Assembly (NCBI GenBank): GCA_964495685.1
Contig: CAZBVQ010000001.1
Location: forward strand, 373,568 to 437,567
Source of the DNA: an uncultured Candidatus Saccharibacteria bacterium
Lineage (GTDB): Bacteria > Patescibacteriota > Minisyncoccia > Phycocordibacterales > PALSA-1337
Direction: 5' to 3'
Length of the DNA: 64,000 nt
The translations under genes and the position numbers were made by a program. The notes under the pieces were generated by a model. It made no database searches. It saw only the letters and a program-made list of their open reading frames with translations, and was not told where the DNA came from. The number at the start of each line of letters is the position of its first letter. Position 1 is the stretch's first letter. Of the stretch, positions 35,620 to 61,818 are shown piece after piece.

Positions 35620-35984
35620 TGGCTCCGCGGCCAGGGATCGAACCTGGGACATCCTCGTTACGTTTGGTCTCCTATTACTAGGGGTACGGACTATATCATC
35701 TCCAATGAAACTCGTGTCAAAGCTTCATTACGGAGTAAGGCGCTTCCCAGAGCATATTGCTCCAGTACTCCCACAAGGGGATAGTCTCTGAACCTTTCCC
35801 TCACATGGATTCTTGCTATGTCATCGGTGTACATAACAAAGATTCATGTGAGGGACTTGGCTGCTGATTGCCCACATTTGCATGTTGGGGTTTCCGGCAA
35901 TTCACCTTATTTTTCAGCCTAAGTTTCCTTAGGAAGCTGCTATTCTCTAACAGCGAGGCGCTCTACCGGCTGAGCTACCGCGGA
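35620..35984 (-). tRNA. tRNA-Asn (anticodon GUU) interrupted by a 289-nt group I intron
   Basis: 5' exon at plus 35950-35984 gives TCCGCGG-TA-GCTC-AGCCGGTA-GAGC-G-CCTCG-CTGT. 3' exon at plus 35620-35660 gives TAA-CGAGG-ATGTC-CCAGG-TTCGATC-CCTGG-CCGCGGA-G-CCA. Spliced cloverleaf is canonical with anticodon loop CUGUUAA. Intron (plus 35661-35949) follows U35 and ends in G. P1 is GCTGT/GCAGC with U-G, P2 is CCTAAG-GAAA-CTTAGG. Core elements P AATTGCCGGAAA, Q AATCAGCAGC, R GTTCAGAGACTA and S GATATAGTCC are all present. Confidence 0.8.
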
Positions 35985-36089
35985 ATATGTTGTGTAAGAA
36001 CGTACGTAATTCCATGAAGAATTACGTCACAAAATGTATCATATCTCGCGCCGTAAATCAAAACCGAAGTGACAAATCTGTAGTATAGT

Positions 36090-55605: not shown

Positions 55606-56703
55606 ATGTCACTCTCCATCGGCATCGTGGGACTTCCCAACGTCGGTAAATCGACGCTTTTTAATGCACTTACTAGGAAGAGCGTCCTTGTGGCCAACTA
55701 TCCATTCGCGACCATTGACCCATCAGTGGGCGTGGTTGCGGTACCTGATGAACGACTCCATAAGCTAGCTGAATTTTCAAAGACGCAGAAAACAGTTCCG
55801 GCAGTCGTCGAATTTGTAGATATTGCAGGGCTCGTCAAAGGTGCCTCAGCTGGCGAAGGTCTCGGCAACCAATTCCTGACCAATATTCGTGAGACTGATG
55901 CTATCGCCGAGGTGGTCCGCATATTTGAGGATGACAATATCATTCATGTCGATGGCAAAATCAATCCACTCAAAGATATCGAGGTCATCAACCTCGAACT
56001 CATTCTGGCTGATATCCAGACCGTGACCAAGCGTCATGGCAATTTGGGCAAAGAAGCACGATCGGGCAAGAAGGAGGCCTTGATTGAGCTTGGTCTCGTG
56101 GAGAAGATTAAGAAGGCTCTGGAGGCGGGCAAACTGGCATCCTCGGTTATTCCTGATGAATTCGAGGCACCTTATATGAAGTCTCTACACCTCCTCACAT
56201 CGAAGCCATTCATGTACGTGCTCAACAAGAAGTCAGGTGGCAAGAATTTGGATGAGACCAATGATGAACGTTATCAAGCCTTGATGAAATTCTTTGCTGA
56301 CAATAAGGCTTCATGGGTTATCGTCGATGCCGGAGTGGAACATGAGCTCAAAGATCTAGAAGGGGATGAGAAGAAAGAATTTCGTGAAAGCTTGGGCGCG
56401 CACGACGATGGCATTAACGACCTAATCAAGAAAGGCTATGAGCTTCTGAATTTGATCACCTACTTCACTACTGGTGAAAAAGAAACTCGCGCATGGACTA
56501 TTCATCGTGGTTGGACAGCACCTGAAGCAGGAACTGCAATCCATGGTGATTTCAAAGACAAATTTATTCGTGCAGAAGTGATCGAGTGGGATAAATTGCT
56601 CGAAGCAGGTTCGTTCGGTGTTGCTCGCGAGAAGGGGTGGCTTCGAACAGAAGGGAAGGAATATGTGGTTAAGGATGGGGATGTGATGGAGTTTAAGGTG
56701 TAG
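55606..56703 (+). CDS. ychF: Ribosome-binding ATPase YchF (Obg-family GTPase)
   Basis: G1 (GIVGLPNVGKST), G3, coiled-coil insert and C-terminal TGS domain (EYVVKDGDVMEFKV). Internal Met at 55606 chosen as the start. Confidence 0.9.
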   Translation: MSLSIGIVGLPNVGKSTLFNALTRKSVLVANYPFATIDPSVGVVAVPDERLHKLAEFSKTQKTVPAVVEFVDIAGLVKGASAGEGLGNQFLTNIRETDAIAEVVRIFEDDNIIHVDGKINPLKDIEVINLELILADIQTVTKRHGNLGKEARSGKKEALIELGLVEKIKKALEAGKLASSVIPDEFEAPYMKSLHLLTSKPFMYVLNKKSGGKNLDETNDERYQALMKFFADNKASWVIVDAGVEHELKDLEGDEKKEFRESLGAHDDGINDLIKKGYELLNLITYFTTGEKETRAWTIHRGWTAPEAGTAIHGDFKDKFIRAEVIEWDKLLEAGSFGVAREKGWLRTEGKEYVVKDGDVMEFKV

Positions 56704-56774
56704 GCAAAAAATCACCCGCTTCGACCTGAGCCGTGGCGGGATGAAATTTAAAATTTATTAGATAATTAACACAC

Positions 56775-57419
56775 ATGAAAAACTCACAAAAAGGTTCGGT
56801 GGCAGTAATTTTATTAGTAATTATTATTGTAGTTTTGGTAGGGGTAATTGGTTGGATTTATTTCAAACAGTCAGCTCAGGTGAGTCAAGTTTCTGATTCA
56901 ACATTGACCGTAGACACCCAATCAGTAACCTCAAATCCCAATAATACGATTCAACCTAAAAAGGGTATTGTTCCAAGTAATCAGAACTCGTCACTTAAAA
57001 CTTACAGGAATACGCAGTACAGTTTTTCATTCCAATATCCTCAAGGATATTCTATAACTGATGGGAAACCAAACAGTCAAACGGTTGGCGTATGGTTTGT
57101 TTGGCTATCAGACGCTAGCCAAGATACAGTGACAGGAATTAACGTATATCAATCAGATTTAACACTCGATCAATTTGTTGCAAACGAAAAACAAATCTTA
57201 TCTAGTTCTCCAGGCACAATTTCTTTCACTGAGGCTGGTCGGGTATCACTTGGGGGAAATACTGCAACCAAAGTGAACTATTCATTCTCGGGTAGGAATA
57301 GTGGCACGTCTGAAATTTACTATTTCAAGAAAAATGATTTCGTCTATAGAATTCAGCTTAATCAAACGATTGATTCTCAGGTTAAACAAGATATTCTTTC
57401 AACATTCAACGTAAAGTAA
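56775..57419 (+). CDS. Membrane-anchored hypothetical protein encoded in an AT-rich cassette
   Basis: N-terminal TM (VAVILLVIIIVVLVGVIGWIYF). Compositionally distinct (clearly lower GC than its surroundings). Flanked by direct repeats of the ychF 3' end. Confidence 0.45.
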   Translation: MKNSQKGSVAVILLVIIIVVLVGVIGWIYFKQSAQVSQVSDSTLTVDTQSVTSNPNNTIQPKKGIVPSNQNSSLKTYRNTQYSFSFQYPQGYSITDGKPNSQTVGVWFVWLSDASQDTVTGINVYQSDLTLDQFVANEKQILSSSPGTISFTEAGRVSLGGNTATKVNYSFSGRNSGTSEIYYFKKNDFVYRIQLNQTIDSQVKQDILSTFNVK

Positions 57420-57460
57420 AGACGTAAATAGTTTTATCAGGCTCAAGTCGCACCCCTAAA

Positions 57461-57506
57461 GGAGTATGTGGTCAAGGATGGGGATGTCATAGAGTTTAAG
57501 GTCTAA
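57461..57506 (+). repeat. Diverged direct repeat of the last 46 nt of ychF (40/46 identical to 56658-56703)
   Basis: GGAGTATGTGGTCAAGGATGGGGATGTCATAGAGTTTAAGGTCTAA against GGAATATGTGGTTAAGGATGGGGATGTGATGGAGTTTAAGGTGTAG. Encodes EYVVKDGDVIEFKV*. Confidence 0.7.
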
Positions 57507-57647
57507 CCCCCCTTGCTTTATTTTCAGTTATGTGTTTATATGCACCACTGAATTGCATGCAATGGTCCATGTACTCGCTGACCTAGACGGTTGGGAGTTT
57601 GAAACATGATCGGGAAGCATGCAGAATAATGAAAGGTTAGGGATAAC

Positions 57648-58124
57648 ATGAAACTGGTAAATCGTCTGGTGTCCACGATGGTCGTGGCGCTCGTGGCAAT
57701 CATCGGCACATCGTCGGCAGTGGCGACTGTAGGAGGGAGTGAAGACGTCAAGGTGGAAATACTCTCGGTCCACACAAGCGTCGGGCTGGTCTGCACCAAT
57801 AGCGTCGAGCACGGGATGTCTCACCACACACTGGGTGTGTGGGACCCCGGTTGATGGGAGATCTCGTCGTTCTGCAACGGTGACCAAGTGACGGTCACGA
57901 ACACTGACTGCGCGACCTCGACGGTCACGGTGAACGGAACCTTGCTCGGCGCGTCGGACACGGCGTCCGCGTCTTCATCTGCCAAAGTTACTGTCTATAC
58001 CCTGAGCCATAGCCAGTACATTACGTGGGACCCGCTGGCGGAAACATATGTCGGTCATGTTGACGTCGGTGTCTCGAAGACCTACGAGGAGTTTTGTCTG
58101 CAGCCGATTGAGCCGGAGGATTGA
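57648..58124 (+). pseudogene. GC-rich secreted-protein ORF interrupted by an in-frame TGA (57852-57854); possibly a pseudogene or two short ORFs
   Basis: ORFs 57648-57854 and 57888-58124 are in the same frame and contiguous through a single TGA. Signal peptide at the N-terminus. Local GC is clearly higher than the window average. Confidence 0.3.
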
Positions 58125-58911
58125 TCCCCTCGAGCTCTTGTTCAAGTCTTACACCCGCTGGGAACACCGGCGGGCTTTTTGTACATGACGTCTTCCATTA
58201 AGTCCCTAAATATGGTATAAACTCTCCCGGAATGTACGTTGTCGTAGGGCGTGTATTCCATAGGTTCTTCAACTAAACTGTCGGTTAACCCTTGGAGGAT
58301 TCGCATGAATAATGTCGGTGCTCTGTCACTGTTCGGGCTCAAAGCTGGGTTAGGCTGCTTTTTCTTGTTCGCCTGCCTAACTGGCGCAATCATGTTCGCA
58401 TTTTTGCTACCCTTGTTGCCGAATGATTCGGCGGACTCATCACGAAGGAGCGTTTGATATGGAAAAAATTATTTTACATCCCGTCCTGGATGCACCACCA
58501 CCTTCTCCGTTGATTCCGATTGGTACACTGTCGAAACACATGCTGGTTGCGGCTCTGAGTTGTATTTTGGTTGCTGCTGGACTCTGTGTTGTGTGGTACA
58601 TCTACTACCACTGAAAGGAGATTATGTCAGTGCGCAGATCTATGTTATCGTCATCTCGAGGGCGTGAGCGACCTTGGGGATTCAGTCGGGAACCGATACA
58701 CGTACCCCCTTGCTTCATGAGTGAACCGTCACGTGAAAATCGTATCACGTTCACTCCTTTGTTCGATTGGCTTGACAGTTGTGTACGTTGGATTCGTGCC
58801 AAGTTCAGCAACCGCCCTCGCTGAACTGATTGTGTTCAGTTTTTCTTCACGCCGCTCATCGTTGGGCGGCGTTTTTTGTAAAATAGGTCTATTTGAGCTA
58901 TGATATGAGCC

Positions 58912-61818
58912 ATGAAGAAGTCCATCTCCAAGCCCACGGGGTTGTCCGTATATGACCACAAGGCTATCGAATCCAAGTGGCAGAAAGTGTGGGAGAAGAA
59001 AAAGTCGTATCAAGTAAAGGAGGATTTAAATAAAAAGAAGTTTTACGGTCTCATCGAATTTCCATATCCATCCGGAGATGGTCTCCATGTCGGTCACATC
59101 CGCAGCAACACGGCAATGGACGTCATTGCCCGCAAGCGCCGCGCTGAAGGGTTCAATGTGCTGTATCCGATTGGTTGGGACGCTTTTGGCCTACCGACAG
59201 AGAACTATGCCATCAAGACAGGTATCCAGCCAGCTATTGTTACAAAAAAGAATACGGACACATTCCGCCGTCAACTCAAGGCACTTGGCTTCTCATTTGA
59301 TTGGTCACGTGAAATAGACACTACTGATCCTGCGTATTACAAATGGACGCAGTGGATATTCCTGCAATTCTTCAAGAAGGGATTGGCGTACAAAAAGAAG
59401 ATGACCATCAATTGGTGTCCGAAGGATTTGATCGGTCTAGCCAATGAAGAAGTCGTGGATGGAAAATGTGAGCGTTGTGGTACAGCTGTAGAAAAGCGCG
59501 AGAAAGAACAGTGGATGTTGGCGATTACGAAGTATGCGGAGAGGTTGGATAAGGATCTAGATAAGACGCAATTTCTAGAGAAGATCAAAATTCAGCAGAG
59601 GAATTGGATAGGGAAGAGTGAGGGGGCGGAGATTGATTTTGAAATACGAAATGAAAAAATAACAGTCTTTACGACACGACCGGATACTCTTTTCGGGGTG
59701 ACATACATCGTCTTGGCACCTGAGCACGTATTGATACAGCAACTACTTTCTGTAGTCGAAAACAAAAAGGATATCGAGGAATATATTTCAAAGGCAAAGA
59801 AGGAGTCAGAGATGGAGCGCACTGATGCTTCCAAAGAAAAAACAGGTGTTGAGCTGAAGGGTATCAAAGCCATCAATCCTGCCAATAATGAAGAGGTGCC
59901 GGTGTGGATCGCGGACTATGTCCTGGCCGACTATGGTACGGGTGCGGTCATGGCGGTGCCTGCGCATGATGAGCGAGATTACGCATTTGCCAAGAAATAT
60001 GGATTGCCAATAAGGGACGTCGTCATGCCTATAAGAGTCGATGCTTCAAATCCACATGTTCATGGTAAGAAGGTTGTGGAGCGTAAGGCCGTACAAGCAA
60101 TTATTGTGGATCCGAAAACAAAGAAGATTCTTTGCCTCAAATGGAAAAAGCAACCGTGGACAACGTTTGTTGTTGGGGGTGTTGAGGGTAACGAAGATAG
60201 TGTCGAGGCGGCGCGTAGAGAAATTGCTGAAGAGACTGGATACACAGATCTCAAACTCGTACGTGTCCTCGGGGGGCCAGTACGAAGTGAATTTTTTGCC
60301 GCACACAAAGATGTCAATCGTATCGCGTATTTCAATGCAATTCATTTTGAGCTTGCGAGCGACAAACGGACACCGTTGACTGATGAGGAGCAAGAGAAGC
60401 ATGAAGTAATCTGGATGGATGCTGATGCTATCGGACCTGGTGTTATGCAATGTGGAGAGCTTGATATTTGGATGAACCGATTCAAGACGGGCAACGATGT
60501 TGTTCTTGAAGATGGCGAGCTCATCAATTCAGGATCCTTCAACGGTAAGGAGTCATTATTAGTTAAAAAAGAAATTACTGAATCTGTCGGTGGGAAGTGG
60601 ATCACCACCTTCAAACTCCGCGACTGGATCTTCTCCCGCCAGCGCTACTGGGGTGAGCCGATTCCCGTCATCAACTGTGAAAAATGTGGCCTTGTCCCTG
60701 TCCCAGAAAAAGATTTGCCCGTGAAGTTGCCAGCGGTAAAGAATTACAAGCCCACTGAAACAGGCGAGTCACCATTGGCTGCAATTACGAAGTGGGTCAA
60801 CACCAAGTGTCCGCAATGCAAAGGTAAAGCCACCCGCGAAACTGACACCATGCCAAATTGGGCGGGTTCAAGTTGGTACTATTTGCGCTATGCTGATGCA
60901 CATAATAAGAAAGAATTCGCCTCAAAAAAGAGTCTGGACTATTGGACACCAGTCGATTGGTACAATGGTGGTATGGAACACACCACGCTCCACTTACTCT
61001 ATTCTCGTTTCTGGCACAAATTCCTCTTTGATCTTGGATTGGTACCGACTGATGAACCATATACCAAACGTACCTCCCATGGCCTCATTTTGGCCGAAGG
61101 TGGGGTCAAAATGTCGAAGTCAAAGGGCAACGTCATCAACCCTGATAGTATTGTCGAAACAGTCGGCGCTGACAGTTTGCGCCTCTATGAGATGTTCATG
61201 GGACCATTCGACCAGCCGATTTCGTGGGATACCAATAATATTGCTGGGGTCAGACGTTTCTTGGAACGAGTCTGGAAGTTGAGAGAGAAAGTAGTAAACT
61301 CTAAACTCGAAACTCTGAATTCTAAACAAATTCAAAATTCGAAATTTGAAATTCAAAACGCAGCAGACAAAATCATCCACAAAACTATCAAGAAAGTCAG
61401 TGACGATATCGAAGCGATGCGCTTCAATACGGCCGTGAGTGCACTCATGATCGCCCTCAACGAACTGGAGAAGATAGAAACTATCGGTACACAGCAGTAC
61501 GCATCATTCCTGCAGCTTCTGGCACCCTTCGCGCCTCATATTGTCGAAGAATTGTGGGCATCACTCGGAAATAAGACGTCTGTCCATCTCGCTCCGTGGC
61601 CGACGTATGATGCGTCGTTGGCTGTGGATAATGAGGTGACTATCATGGTGCAAATCAATGGCAAAGTGCGGGGCTCATTCATGGTGCCTGTGGATTCTAG
61701 TAGGGAAGAGCTCGAATCCCGTGCCAAAGCTCTTCCCGAAGCGGCCAAGTGGATCGCTGGTGGTCAGATCAAGAAAGTTATCGTGGTACTCAACAAATTG
61801 GTCAATATTGTTGTCTAG
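58912..61818 (+). CDS. leuS: Leucine--tRNA ligase with a NUDIX hydrolase domain inserted between the CP1/editing region and the leucyl-specific domain
   Basis: HIGH (HVGH), editing-domain T-rich region (TTRPDTLFGV), KMSKS, anticodon-binding C-terminus. Perfect Nudix box GGVEGNEDSVEAARREIAEETGY in an insert of about 140 aa at roughly nt 60040-60490. Two tandem terminators at 58820-58880 upstream. Confidence 0.9.
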   Translation: MKKSISKPTGLSVYDHKAIESKWQKVWEKKKSYQVKEDLNKKKFYGLIEFPYPSGDGLHVGHIRSNTAMDVIARKRRAEGFNVLYPIGWDAFGLPTENYAIKTGIQPAIVTKKNTDTFRRQLKALGFSFDWSREIDTTDPAYYKWTQWIFLQFFKKGLAYKKKMTINWCPKDLIGLANEEVVDGKCERCGTAVEKREKEQWMLAITKYAERLDKDLDKTQFLEKIKIQQRNWIGKSEGAEIDFEIRNEKITVFTTRPDTLFGVTYIVLAPEHVLIQQLLSVVENKKDIEEYISKAKKESEMERTDASKEKTGVELKGIKAINPANNEEVPVWIADYVLADYGTGAVMAVPAHDERDYAFAKKYGLPIRDVVMPIRVDASNPHVHGKKVVERKAVQAIIVDPKTKKILCLKWKKQPWTTFVVGGVEGNEDSVEAARREIAEETGYTDLKLVRVLGGPVRSEFFAAHKDVNRIAYFNAIHFELASDKRTPLTDEEQEKHEVIWMDADAIGPGVMQCGELDIWMNRFKTGNDVVLEDGELINSGSFNGKESLLVKKEITESVGGKWITTFKLRDWIFSRQRYWGEPIPVINCEKCGLVPVPEKDLPVKLPAVKNYKPTETGESPLAAITKWVNTKCPQCKGKATRETDTMPNWAGSSWYYLRYADAHNKKEFASKKSLDYWTPVDWYNGGMEHTTLHLLYSRFWHKFLFDLGLVPTDEPYTKRTSHGLILAEGGVKMSKSKGNVINPDSIVETVGADSLRLYEMFMGPFDQPISWDTNNIAGVRRFLERVWKLREKVVNSKLETLNSKQIQNSKFEIQNAADKIIHKTIKKVSDDIEAMRFNTAVSALMIALNELEKIETIGTQQYASFLQLLAPFAPHIVEELWASLGNKTSVHLAPWPTYDASLAVDNEVTIMVQINGKVRGSFMVPVDSSREELESRAKALPEAAKWIAGGQIKKVIVVLNKLVNIVV

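Follow-up and report, generated by a model that had tools for sequence, protein, structure and literature searches.

A complete Nudix hydrolase domain nested in the CP1 editing domain of a leucyl-tRNA synthetase from a Patescibacteria genome

What is a second enzyme domain doing inside an essential aminoacyl-tRNA synthetase (aaRS) of a minimal genome? The question is raised by the leuS gene of an uncultured Candidatus Saccharibacteria bacterium, located in a 64,000-nucleotide stretch of contig CAZBVQ010000001.1 (the window), where a reading of the sequence alone had pointed to a NUDIX hydrolase within leucyl-tRNA synthetase (LeuRS). Synthetases are the textbook case of domain gain in complex eukaryotes. 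Here it is the opposite organisms, minimal-genome episymbionts, that have repeatedly nested whole catalytic domains in an essential synthetase.

The host LeuRS

The leuS open reading frame (58912..61818; this and all features below lie on the + strand) encodes 968 amino acids followed by a stop codon, and in an NCBIfam profile search the protein scores 1010.5 bits against the TIGR00396 leuS_bact equivalog, for which the cut-off is 548.4. The class I catalytic site carries the HIGH signature as HVGH (aa 59–62, 59086..59097). Of the CP1 editing domain, the N-terminal three quarters (aa 230–371, 59599..60024) are delimited by PF13603, which matches aa 230–379 over profile positions 1–148 of 185 (E=3.2e-64), and by the alignment with Thermus thermophilus LeuRS, which extends to residue 362 of that enzyme. 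Two editing motifs can be read off the translation in this region, the T-rich motif TTRPDT (aa 254–259, 59671–59688) and AHDERD (aa 351–356, 59962–59979), which contains the conserved editing Asp. The C-terminal remainder of CP1 (aa 532–567, beginning LEDGELINSGSFNG, 60505..60612) starts where the T. thermophilus alignment resumes. It is followed by the second half of the catalytic domain and the anticodon-binding and C-terminal domains (60613..61815; PF00133 and PF08264, aligned with the T. thermophilus enzyme through residue 876), in which RDWIFSRQRYWG (aa 570–581, catalytic domain) and KMSKS (aa 733–737, 61108–61122) are again read off the translation.

All domains and motifs are shared with the canonical LeuRS of T. 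thermophilus (1h3n/2bte) and E. coli (4aq7) at 35–37% identity. The full-length AF2 model superimposes on solved bacterial LeuRS structures with target-normalised TM scores of 0.80–0.84 in Foldseek, those for the E. coli and T. thermophilus enzymes being 0.80–0.82, and the earlier description of an in-frame insert in an otherwise standard LeuRS is thereby upheld. The synthetic and editing motifs of LeuRS (HIGH, KMSKS, TTRPDT and AHDERD) are all kept, and aside from the insert the host is an otherwise intact bacterial-type LeuRS of an ultra-small Patescibacteria (CPR) genome. A T-box or other leader RNA 5' of leuS was considered and rejected, Rfam returning a sub-threshold anti-hemB match alone (26 bits against 49.5); predicted structure in the upstream region was not significant (z = −0.99).

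Structure and insertion site of the Nudix module

The nested Nudix module (aa 372–531, 60025..60504) is a complete domain, comparable with a free-standing Nudix protein of ~160 aa. In Pfam, aa 391–507 match profile positions 3–118 of the 134-position PF00293 (NUDIX) model at E=1.1e-13, and the score of 51.8 bits exceeds the gathering threshold of 21.1. The Nudix box, the metal-binding catalytic motif, is GGVEGNEDSVEAARREIAEETGY (aa 422–444, 60175..60243) and fits GX5EX7REUXEEXGU exactly. This strict motif occurs once in the six-frame ORFs of the window and in 0 of 200 residue shuffles (52,335 residues). Downstream lies the subfamily signature FFAAHKDVNR (aa 461–470, 60292..60321), in which an aromatic pair at positions +17/+18 past the box marks a candidate X-loop and K466, N469 and R470 are conserved. 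The module is confidently predicted to adopt the α/β/α Nudix fold, and in the full-length model no 10-residue block between aa 361 and 560 has a pLDDT below 89, which argues for a docked domain with ordered junctions and against floppy linkers. The segment is thus a genuine domain with a Nudix fold and an intact catalytic box. The sequence-only reading, which had placed a complete NUDIX domain with a perfect box at 60040–60490 (aa 377–526, the core of the module) and had proposed the PF00293 search, was correct in these respects.

In the alignment with T. thermophilus LeuRS (1h3n), residues 13–371 of the window protein correspond to residues 3–362 and residues 533–742 to residues 379–593. Where the canonical enzyme has a CP1 loop of ~16 aa (residues 363–378), the window protein therefore has 161 aa, a net gain of ~145 aa. 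PF13603 breaks off at profile position 148, directly before the insert, and in the relative P0095 profile positions 124–185 pick up again past its Nudix domain; the insertion accordingly lies inside the CP1 editing domain, in a surface loop, and not after CP1 and before the leucyl-specific domain as first suggested. The conserved LeuRS blocks on either side, earlier estimated to be ~190 aa apart, are separated by 200 aa (aa 368–567). No solved or published LeuRS with an enzymatic domain at this CP1 loop was found.

The junction residues are V371/M372 and V531/L532. No direct DNA repeat or target-site duplication flanks the insert, the 'DVV' present at both junctions being encoded as GACGTCGTC and GATGTTGTT, and insert and flanks have the same GC content. 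The Pfam scan of the window protein revealed no Hint/intein or homing-endonuclease domain, and protein-splicing motifs are likewise missing, so an intein or mobile-element origin was rejected. An assembly chimera, which had been named as the outcome that would overturn the observation, is ruled out by the identical 968-aa protein on 8 contigs of independent samples, with further occurrences in NCBI/ENA/Logan, and by hundreds of diverged homologues that share the architecture and the insert junctions. No read-level sign of a chimeric junction is present. Together with the above-threshold Pfam match and the confident predicted fold, these observations leave a negligible chance that the module is an artefact, whether a coincidental motif, a mis-assembly or an insertion absent from the mature protein.

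Comparison with known Nudix enzymes

In a sequence-profile search of the PDB the module matches 3i7u best, an Ap4A hydrolase of Aquifex (E=1.8e-11, over the full length), and the Ap4A hydrolases 1kt9, 3u53, 5cfi and CT771 (4ilq) also align over their full length. The asymmetric Ap4A/ApnA hydrolases counted among the closest systems, namely 3i7u of A. aeolicus, 1kt9 of C. elegans, human NUDT2 (3u53), CT771 of C. trachomatis, Ndx1 of T. thermophilus and Rv2985 of M. tuberculosis, are 15–22% identical to the module. This similarity is modest and partly due to the Nudix box, which counts against an Ap4A assignment, and Nudix proteins that are uncharacterised or of other kinds have scores close to those of the Ap4A hydrolases. 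The closest structure is 2azw, a free-standing MutT/Nudix protein of the Firmicute Enterococcus faecalis with 15–16% identity; it is of no help in assigning function because it is a structural-genomics entry without an assigned one.

The marker of ApnA hydrolases is a conserved Tyr, stacking against adenine, in the X-loop that follows the Nudix box; ADP-ribose enzymes are marked by a Pro in the X-loop, and NADH enzymes by SQPWPFPQS (PMC5389931). In an HMM alignment FFAAHKDVNR is matched to Y-W...K..R of 3i7u, but the window protein has Phe461–Phe462, not Tyr, at the marker positions. Among members of the module subfamily each of the two aromatic positions is F or Y in at least 92%, with Tyr at +18 in about half, and K466 is conserved in 97%. 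The subfamily also differs from the ApnA hydrolases in having its own signature (R391, W411, W416, HKxxNR and W501) and an N-terminal extension of ~20 aa, and the window module is nested in a synthetase whereas those hydrolases are free-standing. No SQPWPFPQS-like motif is present in the module and the X-loop consensus is F-[FY]-A-A-H-K, placing it outside the ADP-ribose and NADH pyrophosphatases; PDB matches to ADPRases are confined to the Nudix box (profile positions 71–98).

None of the NCBIfam equivalogs of Nudix substrate classes, including Ap4A, MutT and ADPRase, was reached. The best of them was RppH (PRK00714), with 20 bits where 139 are required. RppH is an RNA 5'-pyrophosphohydrolase that also hydrolyzes Ap5A, and its RNA-binding residues are not evident in the module, the context being different as well. 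An RppH-like role, in which the module would act on synthetase-bound RNA, for example converting 5'-triphosphate or Np4N/NAD-capped tRNA or other RNA to the 5'-monophosphate, nevertheless draws on several observations besides this weak match. The mRNA-decapping Nudix enzymes AvrM14 and Dcp2 ranked high in the PDB profile search, the relatives P0147 and P0070 also match Pfam Nudt16-like, both host synthetases described below bind tRNA, and decapping is also an activity of known Ap4A hydrolases (PMC13627108). Against this role, the RppH equivalog is distant, mature tRNA 5' ends are normally monophosphorylated after RNase P, the module occupies differing places in LeuRS and so is not consistently close to the tRNA 5' end, and free-standing copies have no RNA-binding partner. 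We consider it improbable.

Distribution and evolution of the module

The architecture had been expected to be unusual, which is true of the literature and untrue of sequence space. Full-text searches found no description or test of a LeuRS-Nudix or aaRS-Nudix architecture, and a 2017 survey of the Nudix clan nowhere mentions tRNA or synthetases (PMC5389931). Among the best 80 GTDB species-representative loci retrieved with the module, 77 have the LeuRS-Nudix architecture and 74 keep the strict box. A set of 270 proteins with the subfamily module contains 211 LeuRS, the other 59 being mostly free-standing proteins of 147–207 aa. ProRS is the only other host family in this set, which includes no ribosomal, polymerase or other essential protein as host. 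The subfamily is almost restricted to CPR bacteria and DPANN archaea, and it has been captured repeatedly by aaRS genes, at five or more sites in LeuRS (~aa 218, 247, 372, 590 and 636, also outside CP1, with up to three copies per protein) and in ProRS. The ProRS copies are embedded in five diverged proteins, 61–74% identical, from a small archaeal clade.

The catalytic box is under purifying selection. Its key residues are 0.90–0.99 conserved across 190 modules embedded in LeuRS at the site used in the window protein (site A), where they are at least as conserved as in 53 free-standing copies. A non-catalytic domain that senses nucleotides, regulates LeuRS or mediates interactions, comparable with the NrtR/AraR-type Nudix-like regulators, would fit the degenerate box of three of the five ProRS-embedded copies and the lower conservation (0.72) of box residues E7 and R15 at site B. 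Such a role is very improbable given the perfect box of the window copy, the 0.99 conservation of the catalytic Glu residues in the site-A modules and the retention of the box by free-standing homologues; the other two ProRS copies have a perfect box too.

For site A, core and module identities are weakly correlated (Spearman 0.22), leaving simple vertical inheritance unsupported; cores that are 0.72–0.74 identical carry modules only 0.29–0.37 identical, and the converse is also seen. This mismatch suggests module replacement or sorting of paralogues, and some clades mix insertion sites. In an unbiased sample of related LeuRS, 13 of 75 (~17%) have the Nudix module and 62 (83%) do not, yet Nudix is by far the commonest insert, HAD, α/β-hydrolase and DUF559 domains each occurring once or twice. 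Across the wider set, α/β Ser_hydrolase inserts are found in 29 proteins, HAD in L018, P0013 and P0067, Ham1/ITPase in L077 and P0052, and an endonuclease-like DUF559 domain in P0122 and L093, with ASCH inserts in some CPR LeuRS as well. The non-Nudix inserts use several hotspots, and some LeuRS contain Ham1/ITPase, HAD or α/β-hydrolase domains alongside Nudix. Free-standing homologues (P0168, P0003 and P0004) lie in heterogeneous neighbourhoods in which an aaRS is never adjacent. The sole hint from such neighbourhoods is an α/β-hydrolase gene lying directly upstream in L084.

Much of this pattern would be expected if the module were a generic nucleotide housecleaning enzyme, acting on oxidised or non-canonical NTPs or NDP-X metabolites and parked in a permissive LeuRS scaffold with no mechanistic tie to aminoacylation. 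Surface loops of CPR LeuRS would simply tolerate inserts, and residence in the synthetase would provide constitutive, stoichiometric expression in a minimal genome. The variety of hydrolase inserts and hotspots, the multiplicity of Nudix sites, the majority of related LeuRS that do without the module, the weak core–module correlation and the unrelated neighbourhoods of free-standing homologues are all consistent with it, as is the generic JGI name of relatives, 'MutT (NUDIX family)'. It accounts less readily for hosts limited to two unrelated aaRSs, for the predominance of Nudix over other inserts, for the lack of similarity to the MutT and ADPRase equivalogs and for sequence neighbours drawn from ApnA hydrolases and decapping enzymes, not MutT. 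We regard it as a serious rival, possible although somewhat doubtful.

The same patchiness, mixed insertion sites, module replacement or paralogue sorting and multiple copies could instead reflect an immunity or detoxification cassette, in which the nested hydrolases (Nudix, α/β-hydrolase and HAD) would break down toxins of nucleotide type, or aaRS inhibitors that mimic the adenylate, at the very enzyme they attack; rapid module turnover would follow from such a role. Adenylate mimics, TM84 of agrocin 84 among them, are known to target LeuRS (title of PDB 3zgz), and the DUF559 inserts would not be out of place in such a cassette. A possibly analogous architecture is the curated family NF040702, isoleucine--tRNA ligase with an N-acetyltransferase, which likewise joins a class Ia synthetase to a domain that modifies small molecules. 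NF040702 differs in its host and in carrying a GNAT rather than a Nudix domain, and the window protein, at 77 bits against a cut-off of 1999, is not a member. This reading is wholly inferential: PADLOC and PHROGs yielded only matches at the level of the generic Nudix box, no candidate toxin for CPR is known, and adenylate mimics usually lack a diphosphate that Nudix enzymes could cleave. We rate it as quite unlikely.

Proposed function

We tentatively favor, with rather less than even confidence, a model in which the module is an active pyrophosphohydrolase tethered to LeuRS, most plausibly one that clears dinucleoside polyphosphates made by the synthetase. The Nudix module would be an autonomous hydrolase held on the synthetase, with adenine dinucleoside polyphosphates (Ap4A, Ap4N, Ap3A–Ap6A) as its most likely substrates. 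The synthetase would form them when the aminoacyl-adenylate meets ATP or another NTP rather than tRNA, and the module would cleave the product asymmetrically, for example Ap4A to ATP and AMP. In this way the enzyme may clear its own by-product, or an alarmone, at the site of production, in tiny genomes with scavenged nucleotide pools, while aminoacylation and editing would run as in an ordinary LeuRS.

LeuRS is a class I and ProRS a class II enzyme, and common to both are only the adenylate/ATP chemistry and tRNA binding. The profile matches to Ap4A hydrolases and the occurrence of the same subfamily in class II ProRS point to chemistry common to all aaRSs, and on this evidence the Ap4A idea is plausible. 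Also in its favor are the conserved aromatic pair of the subfamily, located at the marker Tyr of ApnA hydrolases, the conservation of the catalytic box, the confinement of observed hosts to LeuRS and ProRS, and the predominance of Nudix among inserts in related LeuRS. LysRS makes Ap4A, and in animals the Nudix enzyme NUDT2 degrades it. In bacteria the degraders are ApaH or YqeK. These hydrolases act in trans, as proteins separate from the synthetase; in the window case both activities would be nested in one polypeptide, with LeuRS or ProRS, not LysRS, as host. The aaRSs are the main source of Ap4A (aminoacyl-AMP + ATP) and Nudix enzymes cleave it asymmetrically (PMC13627108). The model shares with the in-trans pairs the proposed logic of a synthetase as maker of Ap4A and a dedicated hydrolase as its remover (PMC13627108).

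Several points run contrary to a role in Ap4A removal. The use of several LeuRS sites implies that the module needs no one fixed arrangement toward the active sites, most related LeuRS have no module, and the free-standing copies have no aaRS neighbours. The Phe-Phe pair, the shortfall from every NCBIfam Nudix equivalog and the other housecleaning-type domains that some of these LeuRS contain also count against it. LeuRS is not known to rank with the strongest producers of Ap4A.

Location in the editing domain and hosts that are specifically aaRSs could also be taken to indicate pre-transfer editing, the module hydrolysing mis-activated aminoacyl-adenylates released by LeuRS, as the sequence-only reading had proposed. 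The chemistry is unfavorable. An aminoacyl-AMP has just one phosphate, in an acyl-phosphate linkage. The bonds cleaved by Nudix enzymes are the diphosphate linkages of NDP-X (PMC5389931), which aminoacyl-adenylates do not contain. The hydrolytic motifs of CP1 are moreover already intact, and the module also occurs outside CP1 and in ProRS, making this function extremely unlikely.

A broader proposal, which we consider distinctly doubtful, is that the aaRSs of CPR and DPANN organisms, chiefly LeuRS, serve as scaffolds for exchangeable small-hydrolase cassettes, with the Nudix module functionally coupled to aminoacylation chemistry rather than a passenger. Cassettes (Nudix in one to three copies, α/β-hydrolase, HAD, Ham1/ITPase and ASCH) would be acquired and duplicated, would shift among five or more loop sites and would be replaced, and coupling would mean that Ap4N alarmones or by-products, or else inhibitors of nucleotide type, are destroyed on the enzyme itself. 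If true, this 'modular synthetase' system would be new to the literature.

If the Nudix domain acts on Ap4A/Ap4N, the fusion would be 'Rosetta-stone' evidence that synthetase by-products merit destruction at source, and would offer a tractable single-polypeptide system for Ap4A homeostasis. If it is instead a parked housecleaning enzyme, the nesting of domains within tolerant loops of essential proteins would represent a little-known form of genome economy. On either reading, the CP1 site-A loop can accommodate a folded domain of 160 aa, a property of use in LeuRS engineering.

The subfamily also poses an annotation problem, since free-standing members are already mislabelled 'leucyl-tRNA synthetase', as in the case of P0166.

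Structure of the LeuRS and its nested Nudix domain

The LeuRS of the window is encoded by a single open reading frame of 968 residues (58912–61818, + strand) and is of the bacterial type by NCBIfam model TIGR00396 (1010.5 bits, cut-off 548.4). A Pfam scan identified tRNA-synt_1, the editing domain CP1 (PF13603) and the anticodon-binding domain, and no intein-type domain; the HIGH (aa 59–62) and KMSKS (aa 733–737) signatures and the CP1 editing motifs TTRPDT (aa 254–259) and AHDERD (aa 351–356) are present. A Nudix module lies in the same frame at aa 372–531 (60025–60504, + strand) and is matched by PF00293 at aa 391–507 (E=1.1e-13, 51.8 bits, gathering score 21.1). The Nudix box that a sequence-only reading had reported inside LeuRS was confirmed at aa 422–444 as an exact fit to GX5EX7REUXEEXGU, a motif that occurs once in the six-frame ORFs of the window and in none of 200 shuffles. 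The synthetase and the Nudix domain are both members of well-known families, and each displays every defining feature that can be tested.

Alignment with Thermus thermophilus LeuRS (1h3n) pairs residues 3–362 with query residues 13–371 and residues 379–593 with query residues 533–742, a loop of ~16 residues in the former corresponding to 161 residues (372–532) in the window protein. The PF13603 match ends at profile position 148 of 185, directly before the insert, and in the relative P0095 profile positions 124–185 pick up again after the Nudix domain. The module is thus nested within the C-terminal part of CP1 and not, as had been proposed, after CP1 and before the leucyl-specific domain. Among solved LeuRS structures, no counterpart of a catalytic Nudix domain nested in CP1 was found.

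The isolated module (aa 372–532) was modeled by AF2 with a mean pLDDT of 94.4 and a pTM of 0.87, which, together with the PF00293 match, removes the concern that the motif might lack a Nudix fold. The full-length model (pLDDT 87.3, pTM 0.77) superposes on the solved Escherichia coli, T. thermophilus and Neisseria gonorrhoeae enzymes with target-normalised TM scores of 0.80–0.84, and all of its 10-residue blocks between aa 361 and 560 have a pLDDT of at least 89, so that the insert junctions are predicted to be ordered rather than floppy linkers. Independent samples (SRR6747782 and DRR274959 among them) yielded the identical 968-residue LeuRS on 8 contigs, which counters the possibility of an assembly chimera, also raised earlier; the same sequence is also found in NCBI, ENA and Logan, and the chance that the architecture is an artefact is practically negligible. 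The insert shows no GC shift relative to its flanks, and no flanking repeat was found.

Distribution of the module

The profile used to search GTDB contigs (one genome per species) and 1.84 billion cluster representatives held some LeuRS flank positions, and its rankings therefore favour LeuRS-embedded copies, though free-standing and ProRS copies at 128–200 bits were still listed. GTDB yielded 178 relatives, and in 77 of the best 80 under this ranking the N-terminal LeuRS part, the Nudix domain and the C-terminal LeuRS part are contiguous in one frame, the other three being free-standing ORFs of 168–189 aa. By the records' own taxonomic labels, 60 of these best 80 are explicitly Patescibacteria/CPR, including Saccharibacteria, Paceibacterota/Parcubacteria and Berkel-, Taylor-, Buchanan-, Adler- and Moranii-bacteria; labels of Bacilli, Bdellovibrionales or DPANN archaea on a few others may stem from binning or gene transfer. 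The exhaustive search of the cluster representatives returned 158 matches at E<=1e-30 and 417 at E<=1e-10, mostly LeuRS-sized. The nearest LeuRS cores to that of the window, P0013 (81% identical) and those of Ca. Taylorbacteria MAGs (74%), place it within the Patescibacteria.

In the pooled set the module is found in 270 proteins, 211 of which are LeuRS, while most of the other 59 are free-standing proteins of 147–207 aa. The latter match the insert over its entire length, with ~20 residues ahead of the Pfam domain included, indicating that the nested unit was the equivalent of a complete gene. Of the 75 junction-spanning LeuRS ORFs in an unbiased metagenome sample, queried with the Nudix-free C-terminal part of LeuRS, 13 have the module and 62 (most of them 805–850 aa) lack it; the insert is accessory.

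The same Nudix subfamily is also nested in a class II synthetase: in five diverged ProRS taken from JGI, Logan and NCBI (P0144 and P0270–P0273; 61–74% identical), it follows the anticodon-binding domain and precedes the C-terminal (zinc) domain. These five form a small DPANN-type clade and are 641–674 aa long, compared with ~485 aa in their nearest relatives, which lack the insert and are named Nano- or Woesearchaeota ProRS; the Nudix box is perfect in P0272 and P0273 and degenerate in the other three.

Bacterial-type LeuRS with a nested Nudix domain, 37–50% identical to the window LeuRS, also occur on three contigs assigned to archaea (L040, L074 and L078; Woesearchaeota, Pacearchaeota and Methanosarcinales), through either CPR-to-DPANN gene transfer or mis-binning. 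An NCBI MAG record gives the name 'leucyl-tRNA synthetase' to a free-standing 160-aa Nudix protein of the subfamily (P0166), an annotation presumably carried over from module-containing LeuRS.

The LeuRS–Nudix architecture is abundant in public MAG data, where it has precomputed Pfam labels; searches of full texts in PMC and bioRxiv did not find a LeuRS with a nested Nudix domain, and a comprehensive survey of the Nudix clan (PMC5389931) has no mention of tRNA or synthetases. The architecture thus appears to be undescribed rather than unseen. Class I synthetases that bear an added enzyme are already recognised, as in the curated NCBI model 'IleRS with GNAT domain'; the present combination would be surprising to a synthetase specialist.

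Conservation and turnover

Outside the Nudix box, the residues conserved in the subfamily are R391, W411, W416, the aromatic pair 461–462, K466, N469, R470, L481 and W501. Conservation of the catalytic box residues is 0.90–0.99 in 190 modules embedded at the window's own site (site A, aa ~372) and 0.81–0.98 in 53 free-standing copies, and embedded copies that are at least as conserved as free-standing ones argue for retained catalysis. The module is probably a catalytically active pyrophosphohydrolase, and a non-catalytic sensor, which this conservation speaks against, is very unlikely. The LeuRS has kept all of its catalytic and editing motifs, and the Nudix domain nested in it is intact and under purifying selection; we hold this structural part of the explanation, taken alone, to be nearly certain.

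In window numbering, modules are positioned at ~218 and ~247 (both before TTRPDT), 372, in tandem just after 372, ~590 and ~636. Two or three copies, 26–46% identical to one another within a protein, are found in P0007, P0008 and L018, and some copies at a second site (site B) are 70–76% identical to site-A copies from other LeuRS. Across 104 full-length proteins, module identity correlates weakly with host-core identity (Spearman 0.22), and the best module neighbor is the best core neighbor in only 12; the window and L018 share 0.74 identity in the core and 0.37 in the module, and L015 and L048 share 0.66 and 0.79, respectively. This weak correlation, and the mixed sites within module clusters at >=50% identity, indicate that the module has been repeatedly duplicated, moved or replaced. 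An immunity cassette against an inhibitor or toxin would account for such turnover but is quite unlikely.

Putative function of the module

The best PDB profile match of the module is the Aquifex Ap4A hydrolase 3i7u (E=1.8e-11, full length), and the Ap4A hydrolases 1kt9, 3u53, 5cfi and CT771 also align over the full length. The conserved aromatic pair is positioned at the marker Tyr of ApnA hydrolases (PMC5389931), although in the window copy it is Phe-Phe. Synthetases are the principal producers of Ap4A and Ap4N in the cell, forming them from aminoacyl-adenylate and NTP, and Nudix enzymes convert Ap4A to ATP and AMP (PMC13627108). Capture by two unrelated synthetase classes, as in LeuRS and ProRS, fits a chemistry common to all aaRSs. 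LeuRS itself is not known to be a strong Ap4A producer. These matches, the origin of Ap4A and Ap4N and the two-class capture lead us tentatively to favor a module that would act as an ApnA/Ap4N hydrolase tethered to LeuRS, a reading we put at somewhat under even chances. The evidence on substrate is suggestive only; no NCBIfam equivalog was reached. An RppH-like activity on RNA 5' ends is unlikely. Hydrolysis of aminoacyl-adenylates, which are chemically unlike Nudix substrates, is highly improbable.

The main rival reading, a doubtful but serious contender, has the module as a generic housecleaning enzyme lodged in a LeuRS scaffold that tolerates inserts. It is favored by the variable position and patchy distribution of the module, by unlinked free-standing copies, and by Ham1, HAD and α/β-hydrolase co-inserts. 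At the same hotspots, some CPR LeuRS contain further small hydrolases: an α/β Ser_hydrolase (PF06821; 29 proteins), sited ahead of CP1 or around window aa 590; HAD (PF13419), around aa 636 or ahead of CP1; Ham1/ITPase (PF01725), around aa 803; and ASCH (PF04266). Some CPR LeuRS also contain a DUF559 endonuclease-like domain or a 131-aa module that recurs but matches no Pfam family, and with further nested domains these proteins reach 1735 aa (loci L018:5239-10443, L077:4672-8751, L017:4381-7407, L003:4906-8358, L021:1524-5021, L048:4321-7971 and L064:4045-7758; proteins P0011, P0013, P0067 and P0122). Nudix is the commonest insert in the unbiased sample, at 13 versus 1–2 for each other domain.

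In L084:131-1446, an α/β-hydrolase gene is followed 66 nt downstream, on the same strand, by the gene for a free-standing Nudix protein (P0003). The same two domain types are nested together in some LeuRS (P0011, L017, L048 and L064), a hint that they may move or function as a pair.

Other features of the window

No T-box leader was found upstream of leuS with Rfam; a sub-threshold match to the anti-hemB sRNA model just upstream of the start codon (58805–58879, + strand; 26 bits, gathering score 49.5, E=0.0018) is probably due to chance. The gene ychF immediately precedes leuS in related CPR loci (~300 nt apart in L024), whereas in the window the two are separated by ~2.2 kb (56703–58911). The last 47 nt of ychF (...EGKEYVVKDGDVIEFK*; 56656–56702) recur as an 89% identical copy ~800 nt downstream (57459–57505, both + strand). 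The interval contains a 214-aa ORF (56775–57419) with no Pfam match and a 1.4-kb GC-rich (0.50–0.59), ORF-poor segment that matches no Rfam family and shows no significant fold (z −0.99). The interval as a whole resembles an insertion flanked by a duplicated target.

Elsewhere, a group I intron (Rfam RF00028, 81.3 bits, 35668–35959) splits the anticodon loop of a tRNA gene (35628–35985, − strand) that was unreported by ARAGORN; the joined exons form a clean tRNA-Asn(GUU) with a CCA end.
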